Positions 3,001 through 43,653 of a stretch of DNA of 64,000 nucleotides are shown piece by piece; position 1 is the stretch's first letter, and each line of letters starts with the position of its first letter. The notes below the pieces were generated by a model. The model saw only the letters and a program-made list of their open reading frames with translations, was not told the DNA's origin and ran no database searches. The position numbers and the translations under genes were made by a program. Where the stretch lies: positions 12,276,001 through 12,340,000 of the forward strand of contig CM022668.1 of the NCBI GenBank assembly GCA_012295275.1, read 5' to 3'. This stretch comes from Chrysomallon squamiferum (taxonomy: Eukaryota; Animalia; Mollusca).

Positions 3001-6000
3001 ACACCAGAGATTCCAGAAGAGACCTCTTTCAAAGAGGAAATAACCATCACTCCACAGCCCAAAGAAATGGAGGAAATAACAGTCGACGTAACGAAAGAAG
3101 AAACACAAGTGGAGGAGGAAGTGACAACAGAAATAGAAATGGAGGAAACCGAGGTAAAGGAGGAAGCAGGTTTCAAGGAAGAAATTCATTTGGAACCTCA
3201 AGTCGTTCCTCAGGAAGTCGAAATCCCTGCACCCGAAGACACAACTGAGGTAGAATACAGGGAAACAGTGGAAGTCGCTCGTCCCGAGGTCACAGAACCT
3301 ACCCCCGAAGAAGAAATAACAGAAGCAATTCAGCCACAAGAAAGCGAAACTGTGGCGCCAGTTGATATCACTGAGGTTGAAGTTAGAGACACGATTGTGG
3401 TAGAACACAAAGAAAGCCTCGTGGAAGAGGAAGAGCAGAAACCCACTGAAGTGACAACCGAAATTCCAAGCGAGAAACCCGAAGAGGTGGAGGGAGAAAT
3501 TTCGGTCACCGAACAGGAGGTTCCAGTGAAAGAGGAAGTTGAAATAGAAATCGCTTTGGGAGAGGTTCCTCAAGTACCTTCAGAACAGGTCGAAGAGGAA
3601 ATTGCCCTCGAGGAAAAAGAACTTCCAGTATCTGAGGAAGTAACCGTGGAGACTCAGCCTGAAGAAACGGAAGCCGTTATTCCGGTTGAAGTTGCTCCAA
3701 CCGAAGCGGAGGAAACCACTGAGATTGAAAAAGTGGAAACCATTGAGGTTGAAAAACCAGTGGAGGAGATTCCTGAAGAATCTGTACCATCTGAAGAAAC
3801 TTTCAAAGAGGAAATAACCATAATGCCTCAACCCGAAGAGACAGCTCAATTCGAGGAAATTACGTTCAAAGTGACGGAAAAGACCGTGAAAGAGGAAATG
3901 GAAATAACACCAGAGATTCCAGAAGAGACCTCTTTCAAAGAGGAAATAACCATCACTCCCAAGCCCAAAGAAATGGAGGAAATAACAGTCGATGTAACGA
4001 CTGAAGAAACAAAAGTTGAGGAAGAAGTGACAACAGAAAAAAGAACTTCAAGTAACTGAGGAATTAACCGTGGAGACTCAGCCTGAGGTTGCTCCAAACC
4101 GAGGTCGAAGAAACCACTGAGTTTGAAAAACCAGTGGAGGAGATTCCTGAAGAATCTGTACCATCTGAAGAAAACTTTCAAAGAGGAAATAACCATAATG
4201 CCTCAACCTGAAGAGACAGCTCAATTCGAGGAAATTACGTTCAAAGTTACGGAAAAGACCGTGAAAGAGGAAATGGAAATAACACCAGAGATTCCAGAAG
4301 AGACCTCTTTCAAAGAGGAAATAACCATCACTCCACAGCCCAAAGAAATGGAGGAAATAACAGTCGACGTAACGAAAAGAAGAAACACAAGGGAGGAGGA
4401 AGTGACAACAATAGAAATAGAAATGGAGGAAACCGAGGTAAAGGAGGAAGCAGGTTTCAAGGAAGAAATTCATTTGGAACCTCAAAGTCGTTCCTCAGGA
4501 AGTCGAAATCCCTGCACCCGAAGACACAACTGAGGTAGAATACAGGGAAACAGTGGAAGTCGCCGTCCCGGTCACAGAACCTACCCCCAAGAAGAAATAA
4601 CAGAAGCAATTCAGCCACAAGAAAGCGAAACTGTGGCGCCAGTTGATATCACTGAGGTTGAAGTTAGAGACACGATTGTGGTAGAACACAAAGAAAGCCT
4701 CGTGGAAGAGGAAGAGCAGAAACCCACTGAAGTGACAACCGAAATTCCAAGCGAAAACCCAAGAGGTGGAGGGAGAAATTTCGGTCACCAACAGGAGGTT
4801 CCAGTGAAAGAGGAAGTTGAAATAGAAATCGCTTTGGGAGAGGTTCCTCAAGTACCTTCAGAACAGGTCGAAGAGGAAATTGCCCTCGAGGAAAAAGAAC
4901 TTCCAGTATCTGAGGAAGTAACCGTGGAGACTCAGCCTGAAGAAACGGAAGCCGTTATTCCGGTTGAAGTTGCTCCAACCGGCCGGAGGAAACCACTGAG
5001 ATTGAAAAAGTGGAAACCATTGAGGTTGAAAAACCAGTGGAGGAGATTCCTGAAGAATCTGTACCATCTGAAGAAAACTTTCAAAGAGGAAATAACCATA
5101 ATGCCTCAACCCGAAGAGACAGCTCAATTCGAGGAAATTACGTTCAAAGTGACGGAAAAGACCGTGAAAGAGGAAATGGAAATAACACCAGAGATTCCAG
5201 AAGAGACCTCTTTCAAAGAGGAAATAACCATCACTCCCAAGCCCAAAGAAATGGAGGAAATAACAGTCGATGTAACGACTGAAGAAACAAAAGTTGAGGA
5301 AGAAGTGACAACAGAAAAAGAACTTCAAGTAACTGAGGAATTAACCGTGGAGACTCAGCCTGAGGTTGCTCCAACCGAGGCCGAAGAAACCACTGAGTTT
5401 GAAAAACCAGTGGAGGAGATTCCTGAAGAATCTGTACCATCTGAAGAAACCATCTGAAGAAACTTTCAAGGAAAAAAGAAATAAAATGGATAATGCCTCA
5501 ACCTGAAGAGACAGCTCAGTTCGAGGAAATTACGTTCAAAGTTACGGAAAAGACCGTGAAAGAGGAAATGGAAATAGCACCAGAGATTCCAGAAGAGACC
5601 TCTTTCAAAGAGGAAATAACCATCACTCCACAGCCCAAAGAAATGGAGGAAATAACAGTCGACGTAACGAAAGAAGAAACACAAGTGGAGGAGGAAGTGA
5701 CAACAGAAATAGAAATGGAGGAAACCGAGGTAAAGGAGGAAGCAGGTTTCAAGGAAGAAATTCATTTGGAACCTCAAGTCGTTCCTCAGGAAGTGAAATC
5801 CCTGCACCCGAAGACACAACTGAGGTAGAATACAGGGAAACAGTGGAAGTCGCCGTCCCGAGGTCACAGAACCTACCCCCGAAGAAGAAATAACAGAAGC
5901 AATTCAGCCACAAGAAAGCGAAACTGTGGCGCCAGTTGATATCACTGAGGTTGAAGTTAGAGACACGATTGTGGTAGAACACAAAGAAAGCCTCGTGGAA

Positions 6001-9000
6001 GAGGAAGAGCAGAAACCCACTGAAGTGACAACCGAATTCCAAGCGAAAACCCGAAGAGGTGGAGGGAGAAATTTCGGTCACCGAACAGGAGGTTCCAGTG
6101 AAAGAGGAAGTTGAAATAGAAATCGCTTTGGGAGAGGTTCCTCAAGTACCTTCAGAACAGGTCGAAGAGGAAATTGCCCTCGAGGAAAAAGAACTTCCAG
6201 TATCTGAGGAAGTAACCGTGGAGACTCAGCCTGAAGAAACGGAAGCCGTTATTCCGGTTGAAGTTGCTCCAACCGGCGGAGGAAACCACTGAGATTGAAA
6301 AAGTGGAAACCATTGAGGTTGAAAAACCAGTGGAGGAGATTCCTGAAGAATCTGTACCATCTGAAGAAACTTTCAAAGAGGAAATAACCATAATGCCTCA
6401 ACCCGAAGAGACAGCTCAATTCGAGGAAATTACGTTCAAAGTGACGGAAAAGACCGTGAAAGAGGAAATGGAAATAACACCAGAGATTCCAGAAGAGACC
6501 TCTTTCAAAGAGGAAATAACCATCACTCCCAAGCCCAAAGAAATGGAGGAAATAACAGTCGATGTAACGACTGAAGAAACAAAAGTTGAGGAAGAAGTGA
6601 CAACAGAAAAGAACTTCAAGTAACTGAGGAATTAACCGTGGAGACTCAGCCTGAGGTTGCTCCAACCGAGGCCGAAGAAACCACTGAGTTTGAAAAACCA
6701 GTGGAGGAGATTCCTGAAGAATCTGTACCATCTGAAGAAACTTTCAAAGAGGAAATAACCATAATGCCTCAACCTGAAGAGACAGCTCAGTTCGAGGAAA
6801 TTACGTTCAAAGTTACGGAAAAAGACCGTGAAAGAGGAAATGGAAATAGCACCAGAGATTCCAGAAGAGACCTCTTTCAAAGAGGAAATAACCATCACTC
6901 CACAGCCCAAAGAAATGGAGGAAATAACAGTCGACGTAACGAAAGAAGAAACACAAGTGGAGGAGGAAGTGACAACAGAAATAGAAATGGAGGAAACCGA
7001 GGTAAAGGAGGAAGCAGGTTTCAAGGAAGAAATTCATTTGGAACCTCAAGTCGTTCCTCAGGAAGTCGAAATCCCTGCACCCGAAGACACAACTGAGGTA
7101 GAATACAGGGAAACAGTGGAAGTCGCTCGTCCCGAGGTCACAGAACCTACCCCCGAAGAAGAAATAACAGAAGCAATTCAGCCACAAGAAAGCGAAACTG
7201 TGGCGCCAGTTGATATCACTGAGGTTGAAGTTAGAGACACGATTGTGGTAGAACACAAAGAAAGCCTCGTGGAAGAGGAAGAGCAGAAACCCACTGAAGT
7301 GACAACCGAAATTCCAAGCGAGAAACCCGAAGAGGTGGAGGGAGAAATTTCGGTCACCGAACAGGAGGTTCCAGTGAAAGAGGAAGTTGAAATAGAAATC
7401 GCTTTGGGAGAGGTTCCTCAAGTACCTTCAGAACAGGTCGAAGAGGAAATTGCCCTCGAGGAAAAAGAACTTCCAGTATCTGAGGAAGTAACCGTGGAGA
7501 CTCAGCCTGAAGAAACGGAAGCCGTTATTCCGGTTGAAGTTGCTCCAACCGAAGCGGAGGAAACCACTGAGATTGAAAAAGTGGAAACCATTGAGGTTGA
7601 AAAACCAGTGGAGGAGATTCCTGAAGAATCTGTACCATCTGAAGAAACTTTCAAAGAGGAAATAACCATAATGCCTCAACCCGAAGAGACAGCTCAATTC
7701 GAGGAAATTACGTTCAAAGTGACGGAAAAGACCGTGAAAGAGGAAATGGAAATAACACCAGAGATTCCAGAAGAGACCTCTTTCAAAGAGGAAATAACCA
7801 TCACTCCGAAGCCCAAAGAAATGGAGGAAATAACAGTCGATGTAACGACTGAAGAAACAAAAGTTGAGGAAGAAGTGACAACAGAAAAAGAACTTCAAGT
7901 AACTGAGGAATTAACCGTGGAGACTCAGCCTGAGGTTGCTCCAACCGAGGCCGAAGAAACCACTGAGTTTGAAAAACCAGTGGAGGAGATTCCTGAAGAA
8001 TCTGTACCATCTGAAGAAACTTTCAAAGAGGAAATAACCATAATGCCTCAACCTGAAGAGACAGCTCAGTTCGAGGAAATTACGTTCAAAGTTACGGAAA
8101 AGACCGTGAAAGAGGAAATGGAAATAGCACCAGAGATTCCAGAAGAGACCTCTTTCAAAGAGGAAATAACCATCACTCCACAGCCCAAAGAAATGGAGGA
8201 AATAACAGTCGACGTAACGAAAGAAGAAACACAAGTGGAGGAGGAAGTGACAACAGAAATAGAAATGGAGGAAACCGAGGTAAAGGAGGAAGCAGGTTTC
8301 AAGGAAGAAATTCATTTGGAACCTCAAGTCGTTCCTCAGGAAGTCGAAATCCCTGCACCCGAAGACACAACTGAGGTAGAATACAGGGAAACAGTGGAAG
8401 TCGCTCGTCCCGAGGTCACAGAACCTACCCCCGAAGAAGAAATAACAGAAGCAATTCAGCCACAAGAAAGCGAAACTGTGGCGCCAGTTGATATCACTGA
8501 GGTTGAAGTTAGAGACACGATTGTGGTAGAACACAAAGAAAGCCTCGTGGAAGAGGAAGAGCAGAAACCCACTGAAGTGACAACCGAAATTCCAAGCGAA
8601 AAACCCAAGAGGTGGAGGGAGAAATTTCGGTCACCGAACAGGAGGTTCCAGTGAAAGAGGAAGTTGAAATAGAAATCGCTTTGGGAGAGGTTCCTCAAGT
8701 ACCTTCAGAACAGGTCGAAGAGGAAATTGCCCTCGAGGAAAAAGAACTTCCAGTATCTGAGGAAGTAACCGTGGAGACTCAGCCTGAAGAAACGGAAGCC
8801 GTTATTCCGGTTGAAGTTGCTCCAACCGGCGGAGGAAACCACTGAGATTGAAAAAGTGGAAACCATTGAGGTTGAAAAACCAGTGGAGGAGATTCCTGAA
8901 GAATCTGTACCATCTGAAGAAACTTTCAAAGAGGAAATAACCATAATGCCTCAACCGAAGAGACAGCTCAATTCGAGGAAATTACGCTTCAAAGTTACGG

Positions 9001-12000
9001 AAAAGACCGTGAAAGAGGAAATGGAAATAACACCAGAGATTCCAGAAGAGACCTCTTTCAAAGAGGAAATAAACAAAAGTCAGGAAGAAGTGACACAGCC
9101 CGAAGTAACTGAAATGGAGGAAATAACAGTCGATGTAGTTTGAAAAACGTGGAGGAGAGAAGAAACACAAGTTAAGGAAGAAGTGACAACAGAAATAGAA
9201 ATGGAGGAAACCGAGGTAAAAGTTACGGAAGCAGGTTTCAAAGAAGAAATTCATTTGGAACCTCAAGTCGAGGAAATTCCTCAGGAAGTCGAAATCCCCA
9301 ACTTCCAAAGAAACCTCTTTCAAAGAGGAAATAACGAAGAAGAAATGAAACTGGAGGAGGAAGTGACAACAGAAATACAATGGAAAACCGAGGTAAAGAA
9401 TTTCAGGGAAACAGTTGGAAGTCGCCGGAAGTCCCTGCGAAGGTCACAGAACCTAAACAGTGGAAGTCCCCCCGAAGAAGAAATAACAGAAGCAATTCAG
9501 CCACAAGAAAGCGAAACTGTGGCGCCAGTTGATATCACTGAGGTTGAAGTTAGAGACACGATTGTGGTAGAACACAAAGAAAGCCTCGTGGAAGAGGAAG
9601 AGCAGAAACCCACTGAAGTGACAACCGAAATTCCAAGCGAGAAACCCGAAGAGGTGGAGGGAGAAATTTCGGTCACCGAACAGGAGGTTCCAGTGAAAGA
9701 GGAAGTTGAAATAGAAATCGCTTTGGGAGAGGTTCCTCAAGTACCTTCAGAACAGGTCGAAGAGGAAATTGCCCTCGAGGAAAAAGAACTTCCAGTATCT
9801 GAGGAAGTAACCGTGGAGACTCAGCCAGAAGAAACTGAAGCCGTTATTCCGGTTGAAGTTGCTCCAACCGAAGCGGAGGAAACCACTGAGATTGAAAAAG
9901 TGGAAACCATTGAGGTTGAAAAACCAGTGGAGGAGATTCCTGAAGAATCTGTACCATCTGAAGAAACTTTCAAAGAGGAAATAACCATAATGCCTCAACC
10001 CGAAGAGACAGCTCAATTCGAGGAAATTACGTTCAAAGTGACGGAAAAGACCGTGAAAGAGGAAATGGAAATAACACCAGAGATTCCAGAAGAGACCTCT
10101 TTCAAAGAGGAAATAACCATCACTCCCAAGCCCAAAGAAATGGAGGAAATAACAGTCGATGTAACGACTGAAGAAACAAAAGTTGAGGAAGAAGTGACAA
10201 CAGAAAAAGAACTTCAAGTAACTGAGGAATTAACCGTGGAGACTCAGCCTGAGGTTGCTCCAACCGAGGCCGAAGAAACCACTGAGTTTGAAAAACCAGT
10301 GGAGGAGATTCCTGAAGAATCTGTACCATCTGAAGAAACTTTCAAAGAGGAAATAACCATAATGCCTCAACCTGAAGAGACAGCTCAGTTCGAGGAAATT
10401 ACGTTCAAAGTTACCGAAAAGACCGTGAAAGAGGAAATGGAAATAGCACCAGAGATTCCAGAAGAGACCTCTTTCAAAGAGGAAATAACCATCACTCCAC
10501 AGCCCGAGGAAATGGAGGAAATAACAGTTGACGTATCGGCAGAAGAAACACAAGTTAAGGAAGAAGTGACAACAGAAATAGAAATGGAGGAAACCGAGGT
10601 AAAGGAGGAAGCAGGTTTCAAGGAAGAAATTCATTTGGAACCTCAAGTCGTTCCTCAGGAAGTCGAAATCCCTGCACCCGAAGACACAACTGAGGTAGAA
10701 TACAGGGAAACAGTGGAAGTCGCTCGTCCCGAGGTCACAGAACCTACCCCCGAAGAAGAAATAACAGAAGCAATTCAGCCACAAGAAAGCGAAACTGTGG
10801 CGCCAGTTGATATCACTGAGGTTGAAGTTAGAGACACGATTGTGGTAGAACACAAAGAAAGCCTCGTGGAAGAGGAAGAGCAGAAACCCACTGAAGTGAC
10901 AACCGAAATTCCAAGCGAGAAACCCGAAGAGGTGGAGGGAGAAATTTCGGTCACCGAACAGGAGGTTCCAGTGAAAGAGGAAGTTGAAATAGAAATCGCT
11001 TTGGGAGAGGTTCCTCAAGTACCTTCAGAACAGGTCGAAGAGGAAATTGCCCTCGAGGAAAAAGAACTTCCAGTATCTGAGGAAGTAACCGTGGAGACTC
11101 AGCCAGAAGAAACTGAAGCCGTTATTCCGGTTGAAGTTGCTCCAACCGAAGCGGAGGAAACCACTGAGATTGAAAAAGTGGAAACCATTGAGGTTGAAAA
11201 ACCAGTGGAGGAGATTCCTGAAGAATCTGTACCATCTGAAGAAACTTTCAAAGAGGAAATAACCATAATGCCTCAACCTGAAGAGACAGCTCAGTTCGAG
11301 GAAATTACGTTCAAAGTTACGGAAAAGACCGTTGAAAGAGGAAATGGAAATAACACCAGAGATTCCAGAAGAGACCTCTTTCAAAGAGGAAATAACCATC
11401 ACTCCACAGCCCGAGGAAATGGAGGAAATAACAGTTGACGTATCGGCAGAAGAAACACAAGTTAAAGAAGAAGTGACAACAGAAATAGAAATGGAGGAAA
11501 CCGAGGTAAAGGAGGAAGCAGGTTTCAAGGAAGAAATTCATTTGGAACCTCAAGTCGTTCCTCAGGAAGTCGAAATCCCTGCACCCGAAGACACAACTGA
11601 GGTAGAATACAGGGAAACAGTGGAAGTCGCCGTCCCGGTCACAGAACCTACCCCCGAAGAAGAAATAACAGAAGCAATTCAGCCACAAGAAAGCGAAACT
11701 GTGGCGCCAGTTGATATCACTGAGGTTGAAGTTAGAGACACGATTGTGGTAGAACACAAAGAAAGCCTCGTGGAAGAGGAAGAGCAGAAACCCACTGAAG
11801 TCACAACCGAAATTCCAAGCGAGAAACCCGAAGAGGTGGAGGGAGAAATTTCGGTCACCGAACAGGAGGTTCCAGTGAAAGAGGAAGTTGAAATAGAAAT
11901 CGCTTTGGGAGACGTTCCTCAAGTACCTTCAGAAGAGGTTGAAGAGGAAATTGCCCTCGAGGAAAAAGAACTTCCAGTTTCTGAGGAAGTAACCGTGGAG

Positions 12001-12140
12001 ACTCAGCCTGAAGAAACGGAAGCCGTTATTCCGGTTGAAGTTGCTCCAACCGAAGCGGAGCAAACCACTGAGATTGAAAAAGTGGAAACCATTGAGGTTG
12101 AAAAACCAGTGGAGGAGATTCCTGAAGAATCTCTACCAAG
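1..12140 (+). repeat. Coding higher-order tandem repeat: module A 372 bp (124 aa) and module B 906 bp (302 aa)
   Basis: GAAAAACCAGTGGAGGAGATT recurs at 79 and 451. A B-specific marker (start of the antisense MRNLSQ ORF) lies at 1926, 3573, 4851, 6145, 7421, 8698, 9740, 11018, 11922; spacings 1647, 1278, 1294, 1276, 1277, 1042, 1278, 904. Confidence 0.92.
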
Positions 12141-12661
12141 TGAAGAAACATTCAAAGATGAAGTTTTGATAATATCTCAACCATCTGATGTTACTGAGTT
12201 CCCTGAAGTTGAGATGTCTGTCAAACCTGAAGGAATGGAAGAGATTGTTGAGGAGGAATCAATTGAAGAAGCAGAAATTCCTGTGACTGAGGATGAAATT
12301 TCTGAAGAGATTACTCTCGAGAGAGAAAAAGGTGGAGTTAGTGAAGATATTGAGTCTGTTATTTCTGTAAAACCTCAGGAGCTTGAAGAAGAAGTTAGTG
12401 CTGAGGAGGTTGTAAGTGATGTTTCTTTTGAGGAGAAGCCATCTGAAGGTATCGAATCAGAACTGTTGATCTCAGAAAAAGACAAAGTTGTCAGTGATAT
12501 TTCTGGTCTGCCTCTCTTGCATGCAATTACCAATGAAATCCCTTGCTCAGTAATTAATGAAATTCCAGATTTAGAAAGTTTTGTTGGAAATTTAAGCATA
12601 ATACAGGATATTTTAGTAGAGTCTTTGGAAGGAACACTTTGTGACTTGGACATGATTAGAG
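1..12661 (+). CDS. Exon 1 (5' end outside window): giant Glu/Val/Thr/Pro-rich repetitive exon, >4200 codons, interrupted by probable assembly frameshifts
   Basis: Overlapping ORFs 61-984, 975-1601, 1621-4059, 6828-8654, 9183-11438, 11332-12696 encode the same repeat peptides. Donor AGAG|GTATAT after 12661 is phase 1 and matches the next exon. An alternative phase-1 donor GAAG|GTATCG lies after 12448. Confidence 0.85.
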
Positions 12662-17989: not shown

Positions 17990-18316
17990 ATGCTTTTGAT
18001 TCCCTTATAACCGAGGTCACTGAAGCTGCCAAAGATTTTAAACCCGAATTTACAGAGACTCTTGAAAATCTGATTGTTGTTGACGGTGGCGATGCTAGGC
18101 TGAGATGTTGCATCATCGGCCACCCCACACCTGAAGTTTTATGGTTCAAAGACACAGAAATTATTGAACCTTCCGAAGATTTTCAAATTACCCAAGAAGA
18201 CAATTTGTGTACGCTTTATATTCATGAGGTTTATCCTGAGGATGCTGGGAAATATGTTGTAGTTGCTAAAAATGAATGCGGAGTGGCTTCTGTGATGGCC
18301 AGTTTGATAGTTGAAG
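17990..18316 (+). CDS. Exon 4: Ig domain 1 (KPEFTETLENLIVVDGGDARLRCCIIGHPTPEVLWFKD...EDAGKYVVVAKNECG...LIVE)
   Basis: TTCTTCAG acceptor, GAAG|GTGATT donor, 327 nt phase 1-1, full I-set motif. Confidence 0.93.
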
Positions 18317-19638: not shown

Positions 19639-19772
19639 TAGCCCCAGAAGAGGTGAAAGAAGAAACTGAAGCAATTCCACCAACATTTGTGGAAAGACCT
19701 CACTTCCTTACTGTGAACGAGGGTGAAAATGTCCACTTTGAGGGACAGATCATTGCCCATCCTGAACCCGAT
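19639..19772 (+). CDS. Exon 5: N-half of Ig domain 2 (PPTFVERPHFLTVNEGENVHFEGQIIAHPEPD)
   Basis: TTTCAG acceptor, GAT|GTGAGA donor, phase 1-0. Confidence 0.9.
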
Positions 19773-20327
19773 GTGAGATATTTGTAATATCACACCCTTT
19801 AGTTATATACTATATTTTAGCTGTTTATTTATCTATTCAAATTTAAAAAAAAAAAAATTTAATGTTACTTGTTTACTTACATATCATTTTCATACCTGTT
19901 TAAATTTATTTATTTTATTTTATTTTATTTTATTTTATTAATTAACTTATTTACCTCCTTGTTTACTTACATATTTATTTATTTATTTATTTCATTTTAT
20001 TTTATTTACGCCTTTAATTTATTATTTATAAATACATTTATTTGTTTCATTTTTTAATTGCTTTGTCACATTTTTAAAATTATTTTTTTTTAATTTAATT
20101 TTGTTTATTTTTGTTAAATGATTATTTACTAATAATTATTTGCTATTCTTATTTTTATTATTACTATTACTATTATTACTGTTATTATTATTATTATTGC
20201 TATAATCAATTTTATTATTCTTATTATTATTATTATTGCTATTATTATTATTACTACTAGTATTATTATTATTATTATTGCTATTATTATTATTACTACT
20301 AGTATTATTATTATTATTATTGCTATG

Positions 20328-20383
<56 letters not shown>

Positions 20384-20481
20384 GATTATTATTATTATTA
20401 TTGCTATTATTATTATTATTGCTATTATTATTATTATTACTACTATTATTATTATTATTATTATTATAATTAATATTTCAG

Positions 20482-20675
20482 ATTATCTGGAGTCGCAATG
20501 GATTTGAAATTGAGGACTCAGAACGTTACCACATTTCTGTAACCAGAGATGTTGACACGTACCGAGTCACTCTCGACATCAACGTTGTCACACCCGATGA
20601 TGCTGGCAACTACCACATTTCAGCAGTAAATATGCATGGAGAGGAGATGGTGTCTGTTTCCTTTAATTGTCAACA
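20482..20675 (+). CDS. Exon 6: C-half of Ig domain 2 (IIWSRNG...DDAGNYHISAVNMHG...), with one extra T near 20662
   Basis: TTTCAG acceptor, CA|GTAAGT donor. Deleting one T gives VSVSLIVN and the phase 1 that exon 7 needs. Confidence 0.88.
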
Positions 20676-20911: not shown

Positions 20912-21032
20912 AAATTGAAGAAGAGAAAACTGATTTCCGAGATCAACTTCAGAAAACCGAACTAGAAATCAGAACAGAACAGAAAGAAGAAGTGGAACAG
21001 ATTGATTTCCGAGAAACACTCAAAACTGAAGT
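20912..21032 (+). CDS. Exon 7: two DFRxxL motifs (KIEEEKTDFRDQLQKTELEIRTEQKEEVEQIDFRETLKTEV)
   Basis: TTTCCAG acceptor, GT|GTGAGT donor, phase 1-2, hand translated. Confidence 0.87.
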
Positions 21033-21376
21033 GTGAGTTCAGATTCTTGGAAATACTAATTTCTGAGAAAAACTGCATTTTGTTACAATTTTTTATTTAT
21101 TTGTTTTTTAGGAGAATGGTTTGTTGTCATTTTTTTCCTTTATATATTTTTTATTTTTATTTTTATCTATATTTTTATCACTTTGTTTGTTTGTTTGGGG
21201 GGGTTGTTGGGGGGTTTTTTTGGTATTTTTAATTTGATTTTCTGTATGTTATGTTAATTAATATATTTGTTTTATTCTTCTTTTTTTTCTTTTTTTTTTT
21301 TTTGTTGGTTTGTTTGGATGATTTTATTTCATATAATTTCCTTTATTTCTGTTTATTTATTTAGTTTGTTATTTAT

Positions 21377-21428
<52 letters not shown>

Positions 21429-21920
21429 TTTAATGACAGTTTTATCTTAACACAAAAACAGAATGTTTGAAAGGTTTAATGCAGAAAGCTGGTAAACTGG
21501 AAGTAAATTAAATATTAATTGTTATTAATTGAAACAAATTTTGAACATTAATTTTCTTCAGCTTTTTTGTACTGCTATAAGAATCCATAGTGCTTTTCAC
21601 AAAAACATTTCTTGAAGTTACTTATTTTGAACAAAATAACTAGTATAATATGACTGAGATAAAAAAAAAAAAAAAAATGAAATAAATAAATAAATACAAA
21701 TTTGAGATAAAAGATTTCCAATAGCAGCTTTCTGTTTTATTGTTTTTAACTGTTATGTTAATAGTAGAATAGTTTGTTTTGATTTTAATATTCATAAATG
21801 ATTTTTGGATGTTAAACTTGCTTGGTTTGCAGTGAATGTATTTTAATTTTATTTTTATTAGTTTTTATTTTATTTTCTTATTCAGTTTTTATATTTTATG
21901 TTTTATTTTTGTTTATATTT

Positions 21921-21951
<31 letters not shown>

Positions 21952-21989
21952 TTATTATTGAGATCATTATTATTATTATTATTATTATG

Positions 21990-22033
<44 letters not shown>

Positions 22034-22153
22034 ATACTCACTCTTATAAGCATGTACTGACAAGTTTTCTTATTTTAATGTTGTATTTAAATTGATATAA
22101 TTAGTGAAGATTTTAACATGCATGATTTGTTTGGATGTGTTAATTGTATTTAG

Positions 22154-22234
22154 GAAAACTAAGGCTGGGGTTGTGTTCGAAACACAGCAGCTTGACTTTA
22201 GACATCTTCTTAAAAAATCAGCTGTAGCTGCAAA
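22154..22234 (+). CDS. Exon 8: DFRxxL motif 3 (VKTKAGVVFETQQLDFRHLLKKSAVAAK), 81-nt symmetric exon
   Basis: TTTAG acceptor, AA|GTAAGT donor, phase 2-2. Confidence 0.87.
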
Positions 22235-23624
22235 GTAAGTTTACGGTATAAAACACGTACTGGGTCTTTGTGGACTTTTTGCGCTGACATTTTCTAAGCT
22301 TTTTCAGAATCTTTCACATTACAATACAAATTCACGCTTTAGGCTTTATATACTTTTTGTTCACGTTTGTATTTCTGTTCTAAAGCTTTCTACATATAAC
22401 AAACACATTTGCTGGTCTTTTTCTTTTTCCATTTCTTTTTTTTTGCTGAAACAGTAAAAACATTTTGATCTTATAGTTCAAAAGCTTTCTAAAGTTATAA
22501 ACCTATATTTAAAAAAATAATAATAATAAAAAACCATATGCTATTCCTGTTTAGAGTTTTTGCTGATGTACTTTCATTGAAATCTTTCTAATAGCTAGCA
22601 GCTTTTCTGGGTTTTATGGGTTATTTTTGCTTCTATTGACAAATGTTAGAAAGTTTTAAAATATTTATAATTTATAATTTATAGCGTGATCTTTTATAAA
22701 TGTATATATATAATTACTACAAATACTTCATAAAGTTTTACTCACAAGTTATTTCATCCTTTTGAAAAAATATTCTTCAATTTGTTTATTTGAATAAAGC
22801 AAAAAATAATTCATACTATCAAATATTTATTTTACTTAGGTGATATGAAATTGCTTTATTTTATGCTATAAATATTTTTCTTTTAGTAAAAATGTATTTT
22901 TTATTTTTTATTTTCATTTATAAAATTGTATTTGTTGTAATATTTTCTTTCAAAATCTCTTTGTTATTAAGAGTAAATTTATTATTTATAGAATGTAATA
23001 GTATCATCTGTAGTTTTGTGGTATAGTCCATAACAGCATTTGCATTCTTACCTGAAAATTAATTAATTTACCTCAATTTTACCTGTCTACATTTCACCTA
23101 CTTTTTCACATTCTTTGACATATATCAACTTCAGAAAATATTTTCTTCTTTGTTTTATTTAATTATTTATCTCTTTATAATATATAAAATGTTCTCATAT
23201 TTTTTGTAATTATTAAAATAATGTCCTTTTTCTTAGAATTAAATAATAATTGTTAAACAGGTGTTTATATTTTTCTTTGTCCTCATTGTTACTGTACAAC
23301 TTAATGTAGAAACAAAATTTTGTTATAATAAAAATGATCTTTGAACATACATTTGTTCAAATAATGAGAACACTTTTTTTGCTAAAAGATAATTTTTGTA
23401 TAATATATGATGATAACATGATTTTGTAACATAAATTATCAATAATTTTATAAAAATAAGACTAAAATAAATTTAAAAAATCATTTTTCTGTTATTGCTT
23501 CAAAAATAAATGTCATTCAAAAAGTAGCAGATTTTTAATAAAATATTTATATCTAAGTATGACAGAAAGTTTTTTTCTTTCTCTTTGAGTACATAAAAAA
23601 AATGAATTATTTGTTTTTAAACAG

Positions 23625-23730
23625 GAAATTTGAACAAGATGTGAAACCAGAGGAGATACCCACTGAAGAAATTCCTGAAGCAGAACAAGTAGATTTCAGA
23701 GACGTTTTGACAAAGAAAGTTTCAGTCGAG
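23625..23730 (+). CDS. Exon 9: DFRxxL motif 4 (KFEQDVKPEEIPTEEIPEAEQVDFRDVLTKKVSVE)
   Basis: AAACAG acceptor, GAG|GTTCGC donor, phase 2-0. Confidence 0.87.
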
Positions 23731-24655: not shown

Positions 24656-24956
24656 GTTGAAAAAGAGGAACTCATGGCACCAGAATTTGTCGTCCGAACA
24701 CAGGACGTAACAGTAAAAGAGGGGGAGAGTGCGAGATTCGACTGCAAGGTCAAAGGTCAGCCTGCACCAAGCATCATGTGGTATTTTGCAGGCAAGCCAA
24801 TCAAATCGGACGATGTGTACGAGATTATTCCAGGAGACGAAGGCGAAAGTTCGCTTGTTCTTTCAGACACTTTGCCGGAAGATTCTGGTGTCTACACAGT
24901 CAAAGCTTTCAACTCGGTCAGCGAAGTTGAATGCTCAGCTCTTCTCACTGTTGAAG
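24656..24956 (+). CDS. Exon 10: Ig domain 3 (APEFVVRTQDVTVKEGESARFDCKVKGQPAPSIMW...EDSGVYTVKAFN...LTVE)
   Basis: TTCCAG acceptor, GAAG|GTTTGT donor, phase 0-1; ORF 24674-24991. Confidence 0.94.
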
Positions 24957-25658: not shown

Positions 25659-25780
25659 AGCTTTCTTCAGAGACAAGTTCTATAAAATCTAAACATGATG
25701 AAGAGGAAGCTGAAAGTCTACAAGAAGAATCAGCTGACCAGGCTGCAATCAAAATACAGTCTGCCTTCCGAGGTTACAAG
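25659..25780 (+). CDS. Exon 11: acidic linker plus first part of IQ motif (ADQAAIKIQSAFRGYK)
   Basis: TTTGCAG acceptor, AAG|GTAAGT donor, phase 1-0. Confidence 0.9.
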
Positions 25781-26141
25781 GTAAGTTTGTGACTCAGTCT
25801 TTGTGGAATTTTTTTAGATGATATCTTTTTTAACTCTGTCACTTATAACGTTTTTACAGTCCTTATTTAGATAAAATGTTATTTTTTCTTCCTTTTCTTC
25901 TTCTTTTTTATTATAATAATTATTATTATTTTATATTTTTTTTTTTTTTATTTATTTTTTGGTTTATATATATATACACTACTAGTATTACTACTACTAC
26001 TACTACTAATAATAATAATAAAAGTAATTAGTAAACACCACTGTTTAGTTATTTTATTTTCATTTTGTTACATGAAATGTTTTAACTACATAATCTAACA
26101 CATTTATTTATTTATTTATTTTTGTGTATAACTATTACAAC

Positions 26142-26182
<41 letters not shown>

Positions 26183-26298
26183 AATTTTTCATTTACTAAT
26201 TATGAAAAATTATTTTAATTCATTAAAATTCATTTCACTGTACCAACAACTATAATAACAACAAAGTCGTTAACAAACTATTTTTAATTTACCTTTAG

Positions 26299-26430
26299 GC
26301 TCGTGAACAGGTGAAAATCATGAAACAGCAGGTAATACACACTGAAGTAACAACACCTGTTGAAGTAGCTTTAGAAGTAGTAGAGGTACCACAAGAAACT
26401 ACAGTGGAAGCAGAATTTGTTCTTGAAGAG
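26299..26430 (+). CDS. Exon 12: end of IQ motif (AREQV) plus E/V/T-rich linker
   Basis: CCTTTAG acceptor, GAG|GTAAGA donor, phase 0-0; completes IQxxxRGxxxR. Confidence 0.88.
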
Positions 26431-30922: not shown

Positions 30923-33900
30923 GAACAAACACTTCCAATCACCGAGGAGACAGAGACTGCGGTTTCTGTAGAGGAAATCACTGAGGAATTTCCAGAAGAA
31001 ATAAAAGTGGAGATTGTAACCAAAGAACAGGAGCTTCCAGAAATTGAAGAAGTTGAAACTCAAATACCAGAGGAAGAGGTGCCGGAGGAACTGAAGGAGG
31101 AAATTACCATCAAAGAACAAGAACTTCCTGAAACAGAGGAAGTCGAAATAACATTTGAAAAAATACCCGAAACAGCCACTGAGGAAATAAAGGAGGAAAT
31201 TACATTCAAAGAACAAGAACTTCCTGTAACAGAGGAAGTAGAAGCAGAGTTAACTGTGGAAGAAATTCCAGAATCAGTTACTGATCAAACAAAGGAGGAA
31301 ATTACTGTCACAGAAGAAGAACTTCCTGTCTCAGAGGAAGTTAAAACAGAAATACCTGAAACACCCATTGAAACACTAAAACAGGAAATTACAATAGAGG
31401 AACAGGAAGTTACATCAGAACAGGAAATGATAGTTGAAACTAAGATTGAAGAATCTGAAACATTGTCTCCAGCTGAAGTTACCGAAGTTGAGTACAGGGA
31501 CACAATTGAAGTCCACCGTGAACAAACTCTAATTGAGCAAGAACAGGAAAAAACTGACGAAGAAGTCTCAGAGATCACTCCTGAGGAGAAACCTGAAGTT
31601 CTTAAGGAGGAGATTGTTGTTGAAGAAAAAGAGGCAGATGTTACTGAAGCCATTGAGGCCAAAGTGACTGAGGAAGAAGGTGTAGAATCCGAGATTCAGG
31701 ATGTACCTGAAACTGTACCAGAAGAACTGGAGGTGACTGTTGCTGGCGATGAGGTGACTGCAGCTGTAGCTGAAGCTGTTGAAACGAAAGTGACACCAGA
31801 AGAAGAAGAATTTGAAACAGAAATCTCATCTGAAGAAGTTCCTGAAACAGTTTCAGAACAGATCAAAGAAGAGATTACTGAGGAACAGAAAGATATTGAA
31901 ACTGCCGAAGCTACTGCTGCTGAAGTTACTGAAGAGATTTTGCCAGAAGTAGAAACAACTGTTGAAGAAGTTTCTGAAGCTCCAGTAGAAAAAGTCCAGG
32001 AGGAGATCACAACAGAGGAAAAAGAAACTGTCGATATTGAAGTCATTCAAACTAAAGTTTCTGAACTAGAAACACCTGAAGCTGAGGCTGCATTAGAAGT
32101 TCCAGAAGCCTCCACTGAACAGCTAGTTGAGGAGATCACTGAAGAAGAAAAGGAAATGGTATCAACTGAAATTGTTGAAACTAAAGCTCCTCTTGAAGAA
32201 GGGGAGGAAGAACAGGTTTCTGTTGAGGAAATTCCTGAGACTGTCTCAGAGCAAATAAAGGAAGAGATCACAGAGGAACAGAGAGATGTAACTGTTACAG
32301 AAACTGTTGAAACTAAAGTGAGTCTTGAAGAAGAGGTGGAGAAACCACAAATCTCCACTGAGGAATTTCCTGAAACTGTTACTGAGTCCCTCAAAGAGGA
32401 AACTGCTCTTGAGGAAAAGGAAATAGCCATCATTGAACAGGTTGAAACTGAAGTAAGCCTTGAAGAAGTCACTGAAGAGGAAATCCAGGCTCCAGTTGAA
32501 GAGGTGCCTGAATCTGTAACTGAAGAAGCTGAAGAGGAGATTGTAACAGAAATCAAAGAGAAACCAGAAGAGGTTGAAGCAGAAGTATCCATTGAAGAAA
32601 AACCAGAAGAGGTTGAAGCAGAAGTATCCATTGAAGAAAAACCAGAAGAGGTTGAAGCAGAAATATCCATTGAAGAAAAACCAGAAGAGGTTGAGGCAGA
32701 AGTATCCATTGAAGAAAAACCAGAAGATGTTGAGGCAGAAGTGTCCATTGAGGAAAAAGCAGAAGAGATTGAAATGGAAATTTCTGTTCAAGAGAAACCT
32801 GCCCATGAACAAACTGAGGAGGAATTTATCATCACAGAACAAACTTCCCTGATTGAAGAGGCAGAAAAAGAAAAACCACAAGATGTTGATGCTGATATTT
32901 CTATAAAGGAGAAACCAGCAACTGAACAAATTGAGGAGGAATTTACAATCAAAGAAGAAACTGCCCTCATTGAAGAGGAAGAAAGAGAAAGACCACAAGA
33001 TGTTGATGCAGATATTTCTATAAAGGAGAAACCAGCAACTGAACAAATTGAGGAGGAATTTACAATCAAAGAAGAAACTGCCCTCATTGAAGAGGAAGAA
33101 AGAGAAAAACCACAAGATCTTGATGCAGATATTTCTATAAAGGAAAAACCTGCAACTGAACAAATTGAGGAACAATTTACAATCAAAGAACAAACTGCCC
33201 TCATAGAAGAGGAAGAAAGAGAAAAACCACAAGATGTTGATGCAGATATTTCTATAAAGGAGAAAGTTGCCTCTGAACAAATTGAGGAGGAATTTACAAT
33301 AAAAGAACAAACTGCCCTCATAGAAGAGGAAGAAAGAGAAAAACCACAAGACGTTGATGCAGATATTTCTCTCAAGGAAAAACCTGCCTCTGAACAAGTT
33401 GAGGAGGAAGTTACAATCACAGAAGAAACTGCCCTCATTGAAGAGGCAGAAAGAGAAAAACCACAAGATGTTGAGGCAGAAATTTCTCTTGAGGAAAAAC
33501 CAGAGAAAGAACAAGTTGAGGAGGAAGTTACAATCACAGAAGAAACTGCCCTCATTGAAGAGGAAGAAAGAGAAAAACCACAAGATGTTGAGGCAGAAAT
33601 TTCTCTTGAGGAAAAACCAGAGAAAGAACAAGTTGAAGATGAAGTTACAATCACAGAAGAAACTGCCCTCATTGAAGAGGCAGAAAGAGAAAAACCACAA
33701 GATGTTGAGGCAGAGATTTCTCTGGAGGAGAAACCTGTAACTGAACAAGTTGAGGAGGAAGTTACAATCACAGAAGAAACTGCCCTCATTGAAGAGGAAG
33801 AAAGAGAAAAACCACAAGATGTTGAGGCAGAAATTTCTCTTGAGGAAAAACCAGAGAAAGAACAAGTTGAGGAGGAAATTACAATCACAGAAGAAACTGC

Positions 33901-36900
33901 CCTCATTGAAGAGGAAGAAAGAGAAAAACCACAAGATGTTGAGGCAGAAATTTCTCTTGAAGAAAAACCAGAGAAAGAACAAGTTGAGGAGGAAGTTACA
34001 ATCACAGAAGAAACTGCCCTTGTTGAAGAGGCAGAAAGAGAAAAACCACAAGATGTTGAGGCAGAAATTTCTCTTGAGGAAAAACCTGTAACTGAACAAG
34101 TTGAGGAGGAAGTTACAATCACAGAAGAAACTGCCCTCATTGAAGAGGAAGAAAGAGAAAAACCAGAAGACGTTGAGGCAGAAGTTTCTCTGGAGGAGAA
34201 ACCTTGAGGAGGAAGTTACAACTCATTGAAAGAAAGAGAAAAACCCACAAGATGTTGAGGAGGAAACCTGTTACAAACAAGTTGAAGAAACTGCACTGCA
34301 TCATCGAAGATGCAGAAAGAGAAAAACCACAAGATGTTGAGGCAGAAATTTCTCTTGAGGAAAAACCAGAGAAAGAACAAGTTGAGGAGGAAGTTACAAT
34401 CACAGAAGAAACTGCACTCATTGAAGAGGCAGAAACAGAAAAAACACAAGATGTTGAGGCAGAGATTTCTCTTGAGGAAAAAAACAGAGAAAAGAACAAG
34501 TTGAGGAGGAAGTTACAATCACAGAAGAAACTGCCCTCATTGAAGAGGAAGAAAGAGAAAAACCACAAGATGTTGAGGCAGAAATTTCTCTTGAGGAAAA
34601 ACCAGAGAAAGAACAAGTTGAAGAGGAAGTTACAATCACAGAAGAAACTGCCCTCGTTGAAGAGGCAGAAAGAGAAAAACCACAAGACGTTGAGGCAGAA
34701 ATTTCTCTTGAGGAAAAACCAGAGAAAGAACAAGTTGAGGAGGAAGTTACAATCACAGAAGAAACTGCCCTCATTGAAGAGGCAGAAAGAGAAAAACCAC
34801 AAGATGTTGAGGCAGAAATTTCTCTTGAGGAAAAACCAGAGAAAGAACAAGTTGAGGAGGAAGTTACAATCACAGAAGAAACTGCCCTCATTGAAGAGGA
34901 AGAAAGAGAAAAACCACAAGATGTTGAGGCAGAAATTTCTCTTGAGGAAAAACCAGAGATAGAACAAGTTGAGGAGGAAGTTACAATCACAGAAGAAACT
35001 GCACTCATTGAAGAGGCAGAAAGAGAAAAACCGCAAGATGTTGAGGCAGAGATTTCTCTTGAGGAGAAACCAGAAGAAGTTGAGGCAGAGGTTTCTCTTG
35101 AAGAAGAGAAAATATCTGAAGAAGTGAAAGAGGAGATTACTATTGAGGCAGCCAAGGAGGAGCATGAAGGTGTTACTGAAGAAGTCGAAGCTGAAGAATT
35201 ACCCAGTGTTGTCTCTGAAGACACAACTAAGGAATACACAGCTGACGAGCAAAAGTATGCTGTATCAGAAGAAGTTATCACAGAAATTACTTCTGAGATA
35301 AAAACTGAGACCACTGAGGAAGAAACTCCAATCGAACAGAAAGAAGCTTTAGTAACATCTGCTGTTGAGGCTGAAGTTGCTGAGGAAGAATCAGCAGAAG
35401 CTGATGTTGTCATTGAGGAAGTCCCTGAGGTGATCTCTGAGCAGGTAAAAGAGAAAGTTACTGAGGAAGAAAAAGAAATAGCTTCTACTGAACAGATTGA
35501 GAGCAAGGTTTTACTGGAGGAAACACCAGAACTTGATGCTTCTTCTGAAATAATGCCTGAAACAGTTACTGAAGAAGTCAAAGCAGATTTTGTTCCTGAG
35601 GAGAAAGAAGTACCCCTCACTGAGGAAGTTCAAACTGAAATTTCTTTAGAGGAAAAACCAGAAACACTTACAGAAGAGATTGCTGAAGAAAAAGAAGCAG
35701 CAGCAGTTGTTGAGGCTGTACAAACTAAAGTTTCTGAACAGGAAGCTGTAGAAGCAGACGTTTCCCTCGAGGAGGTTCCTGAAGCAATCTCTGAGCAAGT
35801 AGCAGAAGACATTACTCAGGAAGAAAAGGAAATGGCTGTTAGTGAAATTATTGAATCCAAAGTTGATTTGGAAGAAGAAGAAAAGATAATATCTGTGGAG
35901 GAAATACCTGAAACTGTTTCTGAACAAATGACAGAAGAAATTGCTGAACAAGTGGAAGAGAAAGTTGTAACAGAAACCACTGAGACTAAGGCAGATCTGG
36001 AAGAAGGGGAAGAACAAGTCTCTGTTGAAGAAATTCCTGAAACTGTTTCAGAACAAATAAGCGAGGAAATTACAGAGAAAGAAGTGGACAAAGCTATATC
36101 AGAAACTGTTGAAACTAAAGCTGCAGTGGGAGAAGAGGAGGAAGAGGAAGAGGTTTCAGTTGAGGAAATTCCTGAGACTGTTTCAGAACAAATAAAGGAA
36201 GAGATTACAGAGGAACAGAAAGATGTAACTGTTACAGAGACTGTTGAAACTAAAGTGAGTCTTGAAGAAGAGGAGAAAACAGAAATCACCACTGAAGAAT
36301 TTCCTGAAACTGTTACTGAGTCTCTGAAAGAGGAAACTGCTCTAGAGGAAAAAGAAACAGCTGTTGTTGAACAGGTGGAAATGAAAGTTAGTTCAGGATG
36401 TAGCAGAAAAACTGAAGTAGCAGCTGAAGAAGTACCGGAAACAGTTCGTGAGGAAGCTAAAGCAGAAATAACAGTAGAGGAGAAGGAATTGCCAATTTCA
36501 GAAGAGACGGGTGTTGATATTTCCATTGAAGAAGCTCCTGAAACAGTTGAAGAAGAGATTACAATTGAGGAAGAAGAAAAGGAAATAGCTGTAGTGGAGG
36601 AAGTTGATGCTGGACTTACAGTTGAGGAAACACCAGAAATAGAAACTGTTGAAGCTGAGGTATTGATAGAGGAAAAACCAGAAGCTGAAGAACATGTAAT
36701 TGAGGAAGCCATTATTAAAGAAGCTCCTGAAGATGTTGAAGCTGATGTAACAGTTGTGGAGACCCCTGAAACAGAAAAGGAAATTACCACAGAAGAAGAA
36801 CTTCCTGTTCCTAAAGATGTAGAGGCAGAAATTTCTCTTGAGGAAAAACCAGAGAAAGAACAAATTGAGGAGCAAGTTACAATCACAGAAGAAACTGCCC

Positions 36901-39900
36901 TCATTGAAGAGGCAGAAAGAGAAAAACCACAAGATGTTGAGGCAGAGATTTCTCTGGAGGAGAAACCTGTAACTGAACAAGTTGAGGAGGAAGTTACGAT
37001 CTCAGAAGAGACTGCCCTGATTGAAGAGGCAGAAAGAGAAAAACCACAAGATGTTGATGCAGATATTTCTATAAAGGAAAAACCTGCAACTGAACAAATT
37101 GAGGAGGAATTTAGAATAAAAGAACAAACTGCCCTCATAGAAGAGGAAGAAAGAGAAAAACCACAAGATGTTGATGCAGATATTTCTATAAAGGAAAAAC
37201 CTGCAACTGAACAAATTGAGGAGGAATTTACAATAAAAGAACAAACTGCCCTCATAGAAGAGGAAGAAAGAGAAAAACCACAAGATGTTGATGCAGATAT
37301 TTCTATAAAGGAGAAACTTGCCTCTGAACAAATTGAGGAGGAATTTACAATCAAAGAACAAACTGCCCTCATAGAAGAGGAAGAAAGAGAAAAACCACAA
37401 GACATCGATGCAGATATTTCTCTCAAGGAAACACCTGCCTCTGAACAAGTTGAGGAGGAAATTACAATCACAGAAGAAACTGCCCTCATTGAAGAGGCAG
37501 AAAGAGAAAAACCACAAGATGTTGAGGCAGAAATTTCTCTTGAGGAAAAACCAGAGAAAGAACAAGTTGAGGAGGAAGTTACAATCACAGAAGAAACTGC
37601 CCTCATTGAAGAAGAAGAAAGAGAAAAACCACAAGATGTTGAGGCAGAAGTTTCTCTGGAGGAGAAACCTGTAACTGAACAAGTTGAGGAGGAAGTTACA
37701 ATCACAGAAGAAACTGCTCTCATTGAAGAGGAAGAAAGAGAAAAACCACAAGATATTGAGGCAGAGATTTCTCTTGAGGAAAAACCTGTAACTGAACAAG
37801 TTGAAGAGGAAGTTACAATCACAGAAGAAACTGCACTCATTGAAGAGGCAGAAAAAGAAAAACCAGAAGATGTTGAGGCAGAAATTTCTCTGGAGGAGAA
37901 ACCTGTAACTGAACAAGTTGAAGAGGAAGTTACAATCACAGAAGAAACTGCACTCATTGAAGAGGCAGAAAGAGAAAAACCACAAGATGTTGAGGCAGAA
38001 ATTTCTCTTGAGGAAAAACCAGAGAAAGAACAAGTTGAGGAGGAAGTTACAATCACAGAAGAAACTGCCCTCATTGAAGAGGAAGAAAGAGAAAAACCAC
38101 AAGATGTTGAGGCAGAAATTTCTCTGGAAGAAAACCAAACCTGTAAAGAACAAGTTGAGGAGGAAGTTACAATCACAGAAGAAACTGCCCTCATTGAAGA
38201 GGCAGAAAGAGAAAAACCACAAGATGTTGAGGCAGAGATTTCTCTTGAGGAAAAACCAGAAAAAGAACAAGTTGAGGAGGAAGTTACAATCACAGAAGAA
38301 ACTGCACTCATTGAAGAGGCAGAAAAAGAAAAACCAGAAGATGTTGAGGCAGAAATTTCTCTGGAGGAGAAACCTGTAACTGAACAAGTTGAGGAGGAAG
38401 TTACAATCACAGAAGAAACTGCCCTCATTGAAGAGGCAGAAAGAGAAAAACCACAAGATGTTGAGGCAGAAATTTCTCTTGAGGAAAAACCAGAGAAAGA
38501 ACAAGTTGAGGAGGAAGTTACAATCACAGAAGAAACTGCACTCATTGAAGAGGCAGAAAAAGAAAAACCAGAAGATGTTGAGGCAGAAATTTCTCTTGAG
38601 GAGAAACCTGTAACTGAACAAGTTGAAGAGGAAGTTACAATCACAGAAGAAACTGCCCTCATTGAAGAGGAAGAAAGAGAAAAACCACAAGATGTTGAGG
38701 CAGAAATTTCTCTTGAGGAAAAACCAGAGAAAGAACAAGTTGAGGAGGAAGTTACAATCACAGAAGAAACTGCCCTCATTGAAGAGGCAGAAAGAGAAAA
38801 ACCACAAGATGTTGAGGCAGAAATTTCTCTTGAGGAAAAACCAGAGAAAGAACAAGTTGAGGAGGAAGTTACAATCACAGAAGAAACTGCACTCATTGAA
38901 GAGGCAGAAAGAGAAAAACCAGAAGATGTTGAGGCAGAAATTTCTCTGGAGGAGAAACCTGTAACTGAACAAGTTGAGGAGGAAGTTACAATCACAGAAG
39001 AAACTGCCCTCATTGAAGAGGCAGAAAGAGAAAAACCACAAGATGTTGAGGCAGAAATTTCTCTTGAGGAAAAACCAGAGAAAGAACAAGTTGAGGAGGA
39101 AGTTACAATCACAGAAGAAACTGCACTCATTGAAGAGGCAGAAAGAGAAAAACCAGAAGATGTTGAGGCAGAAATTTCTCTTGAGGAAAAACCAGAGAAA
39201 GAACAAGTTGAGGAGGAAGTTACAATCACAGAAGAAACTGCACTCATTGAAGAGGCAGAAAAAGAAAAACCAGAAGATGTTGAGGCAGAAATTTCTCTTG
39301 AGGAGAAACCTGTAACTGAACAAGAACAAGTTGAAGAGGAAGTTACAATCACAGAAGAAACTGCCCTCATTGAAGAGGAAGAAAGAGAAAAACCACAAGA
39401 TGTTGAGGCAGAAATTTCTCTTGAGGAAAAACCAGAGAAAGAACAAGTTGAGGAGGAAGTTACAATCACAGAAGAAACTGCCCTCATTGAAGAGGCAGAA
39501 AGAGAAAAACCACAAGATGTTGAGGCAGAAATTTCTCTTGAGGAAAAACCAGAGAAAGAACAAGTTGAGGAGGAAGTTACAATCACAGAAGAAACTGCCC
39601 TCATTGAAGAGGCAGAAAGAGAAAAACCAGAAGACGTTGAGGCAGAAATTTCTCTGGAGGAAAAACCTGTAACTGAACAAGTTGAGGAGGAAGTTACAAT
39701 CACAGAAGAAACTGCCCTCATTGAAGAGGAAGAAAGAGAAAAACCACAAGATGTTGAGGCAGAAATTTCTCTTGAGGAAAAACCAGAGAAAGAACAAGTT
39801 GAGGAGGAAGTTACAATCACAGAAGAAACTGCCCTCATTGAAGAGGCAGAAAGAGAAAAACCACAAGATGTTGAGGCAGAAATTTCTCTTGAGGAAAAAC

Positions 39901-42192: not shown

Positions 42193-42335
42193 GCAAAACC
42201 AGGAGAAGATGTTGAAGTTGAGTTGACAATTTCTCCAAACTTCAACAAAGGACTGGATGACCAGGAAGTGACCGAGGGCACCACTGTGACCTTGACCGTC
42301 AAGGTCACTGGCACTCCCACACCTTCAGTTACATG
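42193..42335 (+). CDS. Exon 14: N-half of Ig domain 4 (SPNFNKGLDDQEVTEGTTVTLTVKVTGTPTPSVTW)
   Basis: AATAG acceptor, TG|GTTGGT donor, phase 0-2. Confidence 0.9.
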
Positions 42336-42349
42336 GTTGGTATATTTAA

Positions 42350-43652: not shown

Positions 43653-43653
<1 letters not shown>

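Follow-up and report, generated by a model that had tools for sequence, protein, structure and literature searches.

Four DFRxxL motifs, encoded on three small exons, form a tandem array within the elastic chain of a molluscan I-band titin from Chrysomallon squamiferum, and by analogy with myosin light-chain kinase (MLCK, MYLK) we consider it rather likely that they serve as a multivalent, probably weak thin-filament anchor in the middle of this chain. Both the motif and the gene are known, and what appears to be new, judging by the sequences compared, is a tandem, expandable array in a titin. No prior description of such an array was found in the literature searched, which covers few of the subscription journals that publish much of the biochemistry of molluscan muscle. 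The DFRXXL literature consisted of MLCK papers by title, and variant spellings added none on titins; no title in the twitchin and catch, invertebrate titin, Stretchin, lophotrochozoan or polychaete literature concerned an array, and DFR was not found in the text of PMC12040844, PMC12063666, PMC5167519, PMC5963113 or PMC7312179. Of these, PMC12063666 treats molluscan titins and annotates Ig, Fn3, PEVK, kinase and Z-repeats, with no mention of DFR in its main text.

Titin gripping actin in the I-band and retuning its spring is the subject of a long-running dispute, in which the vertebrate N2A results conflict, and according to one review twitchin may be too scarce to act as the sole catch linkage (PMC12040844). 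A 100-residue cassette built from a motif that has a known loss-of-function mutation, present in gastropods and bivalves at 3 to about 13 copies, would allow a cheap and direct test of the I-band grip and catch linkage questions.

The motif array and its gene context

The window, which is the whole 64 kb stretch of DNA analysed here, covers, on the plus strand, part of an animal gene that has many small exons and introns very rich in A and T. Its features are as follows.

1..12661, + strand: giant Glu-rich repeat exon, within which the window begins; at least about 4,200 codons, 25-32% Glu in the long frames
15385-15444 and 16332-16379, + strand: two small acidic exons, A and B, predicted from splice signals only; unmatched in the Elysia ortholog
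17990..18316, + strand: exon C, I-set Ig, second-last before the array (Pfam I-set E 4.4e-23; best match Lottia Ig1)
19639..20675, + strand: exons D (19639-19772) and E (20482-20675), I-set Ig directly preceding the array (Pfam)
20912..21032, + strand: exon F, with motif 1 DFRDQL (20932-20949) and motif 2 DFRETL (21004-21021); RNA contigs from 3 runs show both edges
22154..22234, + strand: exon G, with motif 3 DFRHLL (22194-22211); F-G junction seen in RNA run X1
23625..23730, + strand: exon H, with motif 4 DFRDVL (23692-23709); G-H junction predicted
24656..24956, + strand: exon I, I-set Ig after the array (Pfam I-set E 2.9e-24)
25659..26430, + strand: exons J (25659-25780) and K (26299-26430), whose junction is spanned by an IQ motif (Pfam IQ E 5.6e-05, above the cut-off)
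30923..40661, + strand: second giant exon rich in Glu (34-36%), of ~3,250 codons, beginning and ending in phase 0
42193..62881, + strand: further Ig exons in series, colinear with the titins of Elysia, Lottia and oyster; the gene runs beyond the window

A six-frame scan of the window returned four DFRxxL matches, all on the plus strand (20932, 21004, 22194 and 23692), against ~0.89 expected window-wide from residue composition, and shuffling the 106-residue linker (n=200,000) produced one motif in 251 cases and two or more in none. Exons F, G and H all have AG/GT ends, and exons F through K join into 287 stop-free codons. The four D-F-R-x-x-L cores therefore lie in one frame, where a MYLK-type array has at least three, with the E-F and F-G junctions read in RNA; the first-pass annotation had placed four motifs on three small exons spliced in frame, and the scan, the exon phases and the RNA agree with it. 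Motif-to-motif spacing is 24, 23 and 36 residues. The array occupies the interval between the second and third Ig of the window, in the block order Ig-Ig-(DFR x4)-Ig-IQ, and is enclosed, as originally described, by two giant acidic segments (the Glu-rich exons at 1-12661 and 30923-40661). The earlier statement that Lys follows the motifs needs correcting for motif 4, where DFRDVL is followed by T-K-K and not directly by Lys. Pfam matched no family on exons F, G and H. The IQ motif, split over J and K (25739-26310), lies one Ig domain past the array and is kept in Lottia, Elysia chlorotica and oyster titin.

Two further repeats were observed in the window. A tandem repeat with units of roughly 40-65 bases occupies 24957-25260, from the exon I donor site onward. 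The string EVEYR(E/D)T(V/I) recurs in the giant acidic exons, with eight copies in the first (1606, 3253, 4538, 5828, 7101, 8379, 10698 and 11605) and one in the second (31490); it looks like a degenerate motif 2, which may be a coincidence.

Conservation and copy number in molluscs

The ortholog of Elysia chlorotica holds all four motifs at a spacing of 23, 23 and 36 residues, and its motif cores are identical to those of Chrysomallon at 16/16 positions, compared with 44/90 at other linker positions. Exon H is 65-77% identical to the ortholog pieces P0164, P0064 and P0120. The Lottia model has three motifs, with motif 4 missing, and the Elysia marginata model lacks exon G; this variation among gastropod gene models may reflect annotation gaps or alternative splicing. 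By manual count, oyster titin has three motifs, an Ig, six more motifs (one of them DFRxxI), an Ig and an IQ, and the available part of scallop titin has 12 consecutive motifs (7 DFR, 4 DYR and 1 DHR) with a 13th past the next Ig. Motif number thus ranges from 3-4 in gastropod models to about 9-13 in two bivalves, one of them seen in part, and the bivalve tandem repeat unit of 23-24 residues resembles exon G. Comparing six EQx-type five-letter strings with the PMC12063666 supplement, where line breaks can hide matches, recovered arrays only in two bivalve titins. An isolated QIDFRNVLK is found in a low-complexity stretch of a scallop sequence in part 38 of the same supplement.

On these sequence comparisons molluscan titins generally carry the array, and bivalves have amplified it, which is broader than the first-pass annotation had stated. 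Its net charge is -7 over 99 residues in Chrysomallon, -10 and -14 in the two Elysia species, and -1 in Lottia.

In the AlphaFold model of the Elysia ortholog pLDDT is mostly 78-97 in the Ig domains and 39-57 in the linker, where short helices stand apart from one another at the motifs and no helical bundle is seen. The alignment behind this model is shallow (16 rows, some fragment rows misplaced), and the low linker values may reflect that. The linker between the Ig domains is accordingly predicted to be flexible, with a short helix at each motif.

Comparison with MYLK and other DFRxxL proteins

MLCK binds F-actin via DFRxxL repeats, of which the short form has three, with a Kd of 0.26 uM and one molecule per three actins, and this binding is weakened by mutation (PMC2196421, partial text). 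The molluscan array shares with MYLK its tandem DFRxxL motifs, the EQx prefix, the basic residues after the Leu, and its position after two Ig domains and before another Ig. The close resemblance to MYLK that had been noticed earlier holds up beyond the four core residues. The MYLK string quoted for it is present in profile matches P0065 and P0081, and a nearly identical one in Varanus MYLK. Motifs 2 and 4 agree with a Varanus MYLK motif at 10/16 and 11/16 positions, and motifs 1 and 3 agree with MYLK at 7-8 positions of 16, no better than non-animal arrays.

However, the array lies mid-chain in a titin of >10,000 residues, whereas that of MYLK lies near the N-terminus of a kinase. Its spacing of 24/23/36 also lacks the regularity of the 28-29 residues of MLCK (PMC2185581, partial text); other DFRxxL arrays among the profile matches are mostly spaced at 22-34. 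Moreover, the Chrysomallon array is net negative (-7), unlike that of Varanus MYLK (+6). MLCK-actin binding is partly electrostatic, being weaker with salt, and the 75 residues at the N-terminus of MLCK diffuse along actin (PMC4586593, partial text).

A profile of the four Chrysomallon motifs, searched against 1.84 billion representatives, gave 75 matches, of which 74 contain at least one D[FY]RxxL and 71 at least two, with Ig domains in only 13; judged from sequence, arrays of DFRxxL would thus seem to be distributed far more widely than MYLK. Among 30 matches looked up, four had informative names, namely Elysia marginata titin-like GFS00815.1, Lottia V4A753, Varanus MYLK and a Percolomonas cluster member. 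Three matches (P0058, P0062 and P0115) have C-terminal arrays of 5-6 DFRxxL and no Ig domains; a PH domain is present in two of them, and the remaining one falls in a cluster with a Percolomonas protein. Arrays of this type may therefore be older than animals or may have evolved more than once. In these C-terminal arrays many copies end in LKK(T/S), which we take to be reminiscent of the WH2 actin motif. In P0085 and P0118, two Ig domains precede a DFR array, and P0085 may be an invertebrate long MLCK, since the Ig domains ahead of its array have MYLK Ig5 and Ig6 as their top-scoring matches.

Single motifs are also found in other muscle proteins. The statement in the first-pass annotation that molluscan twitchin has a DFRxxL proved correct, with one copy at residue 1019 of Mytilus twitchin, a motif reportedly noted in print. 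Like the molluscan titin motifs, those of Mytilus and Biomphalaria twitchin and of insect and nematode projectin/twitchin, each a single D(F/Y)RxxL, lie right behind an Ig; they differ in being single copies in another gene, with Ig-Fn3 super-repeats and a kinase. In the partial sequences available (species assigned by part number), single post-Ig motifs are present in insect projectin, nematode twitchin, Sallimus and human titin. A single D(F/Y/W)RxxL directly behind the corresponding Ig was observed in vertebrate titin, insect Sallimus and oyster titin (P0157, P0200, P0160 and the supplement), and by its sequence would be a conserved single motif near the Z-disc end. Twitchin itself has been reported to bind thin filaments (PMC12040844, section 9).

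The nearest vertebrate counterparts by position are titin N2A (I80-UN2A-I81) and the MyBP-C M-domain, which are likewise internal non-Ig insertions with DFRxxL-like strings; N2A lies in the I-band and is a proposed actin anchor. In UN2A the DFRxxL match falls within the solved core (PDB 7NIP), which is related to the MyBP-C M-domain, and similar strings occur in MyBP-C. These are folded helical cores, whereas the molluscan motifs are spaced, and N2A actin binding is disputed: UN2A-I81 showed no F-actin co-sedimentation in one study (PMC8042602, partial text) and N2A-actin binding is argued for in another (PMC7312179, partial text). We found no compact helical core of the UN2A/MyBP-C type in the molluscan linker, either as a bundle in the Elysia model or as a PDB match to the motif profile; a search of the PDB with the four-motif profile gave one unrelated match (E 0.67) and no MyBP-C or UN2A structure. 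In oyster titin an N2A-like segment appears, by sequence, to lie separately and further downstream. The first-pass annotation had described an internal multivalent anchor between two acidic segments as an architecture not known from vertebrate titin. This stands for the tandem array, which is new, but not for the anchor as such, since an N2A anchor has been proposed, though disputed, and a single DFRxxL is present there. The motif alone proves nothing, since single matches are old in this family and a motif-bearing N2A fragment failed to bind actin.

Proposed function

By analogy with MLCK, where three motifs correspond to three actins, each molluscan motif would most likely dock on a successive actin subunit, and the spacers of 23-36 residues would be long enough to reach neighbouring subunits. 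Such a grip would hold mid-chain titin on the thin filament and split the spring into upstream and downstream acidic segments, so that only the downstream part would be freely extensible, which would raise stiffness or add viscous drag. The strongly acidic flanking segments should repel actin, and a local grip would consequently set the start of the free spring. Since the array is net acidic, the grip would probably be weaker than that of MYLK and might slide, acting as drag instead of a fixed pin. The IQ motif one Ig downstream may bind calmodulin or a light chain that tunes the grip, giving a possible calcium input.

A more far-reaching version, which we regard as speculative and improbable in its entirety, is that molluscan titin has a dedicated I-band thin-filament clamp tunable by copy number, with 9-13 copies in bivalves, and that together with the IQ motif it forms a second calcium-sensitive thick-to-thin tether aiding, alongside twitchin, catch or high passive stiffness.

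It is possible, but doubtful, that the motifs are instead conserved sites for another partner, such as myosin, tropomyosin or an ankyrin-repeat or kinase/chaperone adaptor, with little or no actin binding, as may be the case for the helices with DFRxxL-like strings in titin N2A and in the M-domain of MyBP-C. The presence of such strings in UN2A and MyBP-C is consistent with this, as are the net acidic charge of the molluscan array and the N2A-actin binding that one study did not reproduce (PMC8042602, partial text). However, the window motifs and MYLK have in common an EQx prefix and a downstream V-x-T-K pattern that are absent from UN2A, the Elysia model contains no helical bundle, the motif profile finds no MyBP-C or UN2A structure, and tandem amplification suits a repetitive filament partner.

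We consider it quite unlikely that the motifs bind actin only during myofibril assembly or in non-striated cells, as recruiting or bundling elements, with no load-bearing anchor in mature muscle. MLCK fragments do bundle actin and localise to stress fibres, according to partial sources, and similar arrays occur in non-muscle proteins, one of them clustered with a Percolomonas protein. Against this, striated and catch muscle of adult scallops are both rich in titin isoforms, which may or may not include the array (PMC5963113, partial text).

Identity of the gene

Judged by sequence, the gene is a molluscan I-band titin of the Sallimus/Titin type. As in titin-type proteins, I-set Ig domains are interspersed with long PEVK-like acidic segments. 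Apart from exons A, B and K, the window exon peptides (20 of 23) map in order onto Elysia chlorotica EGW08_001885 (P0164). For each of the first six window Ig domains the top score falls on its counterpart among the six Lottia Ig domains, in unchanged order, and Ig ortholog-pair scores, including those for Elysia, are 201-309 with one pair at 171. A search with the Lottia block gave 436 matches; among the 120 listed, giant Ig proteins that include EGW08_001885, the D[FY]RxxL count is zero in 101, one in 16 and two in two, and only P0164 has four.

The corresponding block is located at about residue 9,700 of 18,703 in oyster titin XP_034304301.1 (line count; PMC12063666 supplement) and is also present in scallop titin XP_021365920.1 (same supplement, partial text, assigned by part number), both of which are classed under Sallimus/Titin in table S1 of that paper. 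Compared by eye, the oyster sequence and the window share a colinear Ig-Ig-DFR-Ig-IQ block plus the downstream Ig run, and oyster titin has a Sallimus-like Ig region upstream of the block and Fn3 repeats downstream. Orthology to twitchin/projectin was not found, the orthologs being the titin and not the twitchin of oyster and scallop. Word-indexed searches with single exons were uninformative: the 46 proteins retrieved with exon I were generic Ig proteins (28-40% identity) that lack DFRxxL, and exon F had no match among 25 candidates and none in the PDB. The ESM Atlas gave no usable match.

A giant myosin light-chain kinase of the MYLK/Stretchin type, with the block homologous to Ig5-Ig6-DFR of long MLCK, is very unlikely. 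Scored as a pair, the two pre-array Ig domains do have their highest values with MYLK Ig5+Ig6 (z 1.4, first among 8 pairs) and with the two Ig domains ahead of the P0085 array (z 2.0, first among 10). A quick tree from an incomplete search (59 rows, 93 columns) also places the first Ig in a loose group with MYLK Ig5 (SH-aLRT 85, unstarred). However, a control kinase protein without motifs reaches z 1.3, the P0085 pair ranks only 7th of 225, and raw scores favour telokin. Overall, the scores by which the flanking Ig domains would correspond in position to MYLK Ig5, Ig6 and Ig7 are weak and near control level. The oyster ortholog, with Sallimus/titin Ig domains upstream and Fn3 downstream, is classed as a titin, the precomputed Pfam list of P0164 includes no kinase family, and the mapped window exons contain no MLCK-type kinase domain; Fn3 repeats form the end of the oyster model, which may be incomplete.

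Splicing, RNA evidence and assembly error

As assembled, the 194 nt of exon E (20482-20675) end in phase 2 and exon F requires phase 1, so motifs 1 and 2 would drop out of frame. Five runs include part of this region, of which the three RNA runs from one study (X1-X3) were used; X5, which spans only part of the stretch, was left aside. In each of X1-X3, one contig covers exactly 20912-21033 without an intron, and the loose end upstream of this segment corresponds to the 3' end of exon E. Near window position 20660 the X1 and X3 contigs are one base shorter than the window (the X2 loose end, only 13 bases, stops short of this site), which brings exon F into frame and indicates a one-base error in the window. 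This fits the many frame switches in the giant exons, of which there are 19 in the first, likely to be assembly errors, and 3 in the second (windowed counts); the donor of the first, after 12661, is in phase 1. In the RNA-corrected Chrysomallon frame, SLIVNK precedes motif 1, as it does in Lottia and both Elysia proteins. X1 and X3 also differ from each other at 20655-20665, and the extra base there probably represents two alleles merged by assembly. Two variants in exon F across the RNA runs are both synonymous.

The RNA check of splicing that had been proposed earlier thus reads the E-F junction in 3/3 runs and the F-G junction in X1 only. Because RNA mapping covered exon F only, the G-H and later junctions are inferred; G-H, read directly in no contig, draws support from exon phase, from the ortholog in Elysia chlorotica and from the length of the X1 contig, which extends 742 nt beyond F where the remaining G+H+I+J+K amount to 741 nt. 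Chance matches or a mis-spliced gene model, which the E-F phase mismatch and the many frameshifts of the assembled window might suggest, have next to no probability given the RNA junctions, the 0/200,000 shuffles with two motifs and the equivalent block in five other molluscs, and are already refuted by the RNA contigs and Elysia chlorotica colinearity.

The X1 contig seems to stop one base past exon K, where inclusion and skipping of the giant exon would diverge; both candidate exons after K start with G and differ at the second base. Since the second giant exon is in phase 0 at both ends, it could be skipped in frame, and the end of X1 may mark a splice branch at which this exon, ~3,250 codons of spring, would be included or skipped.
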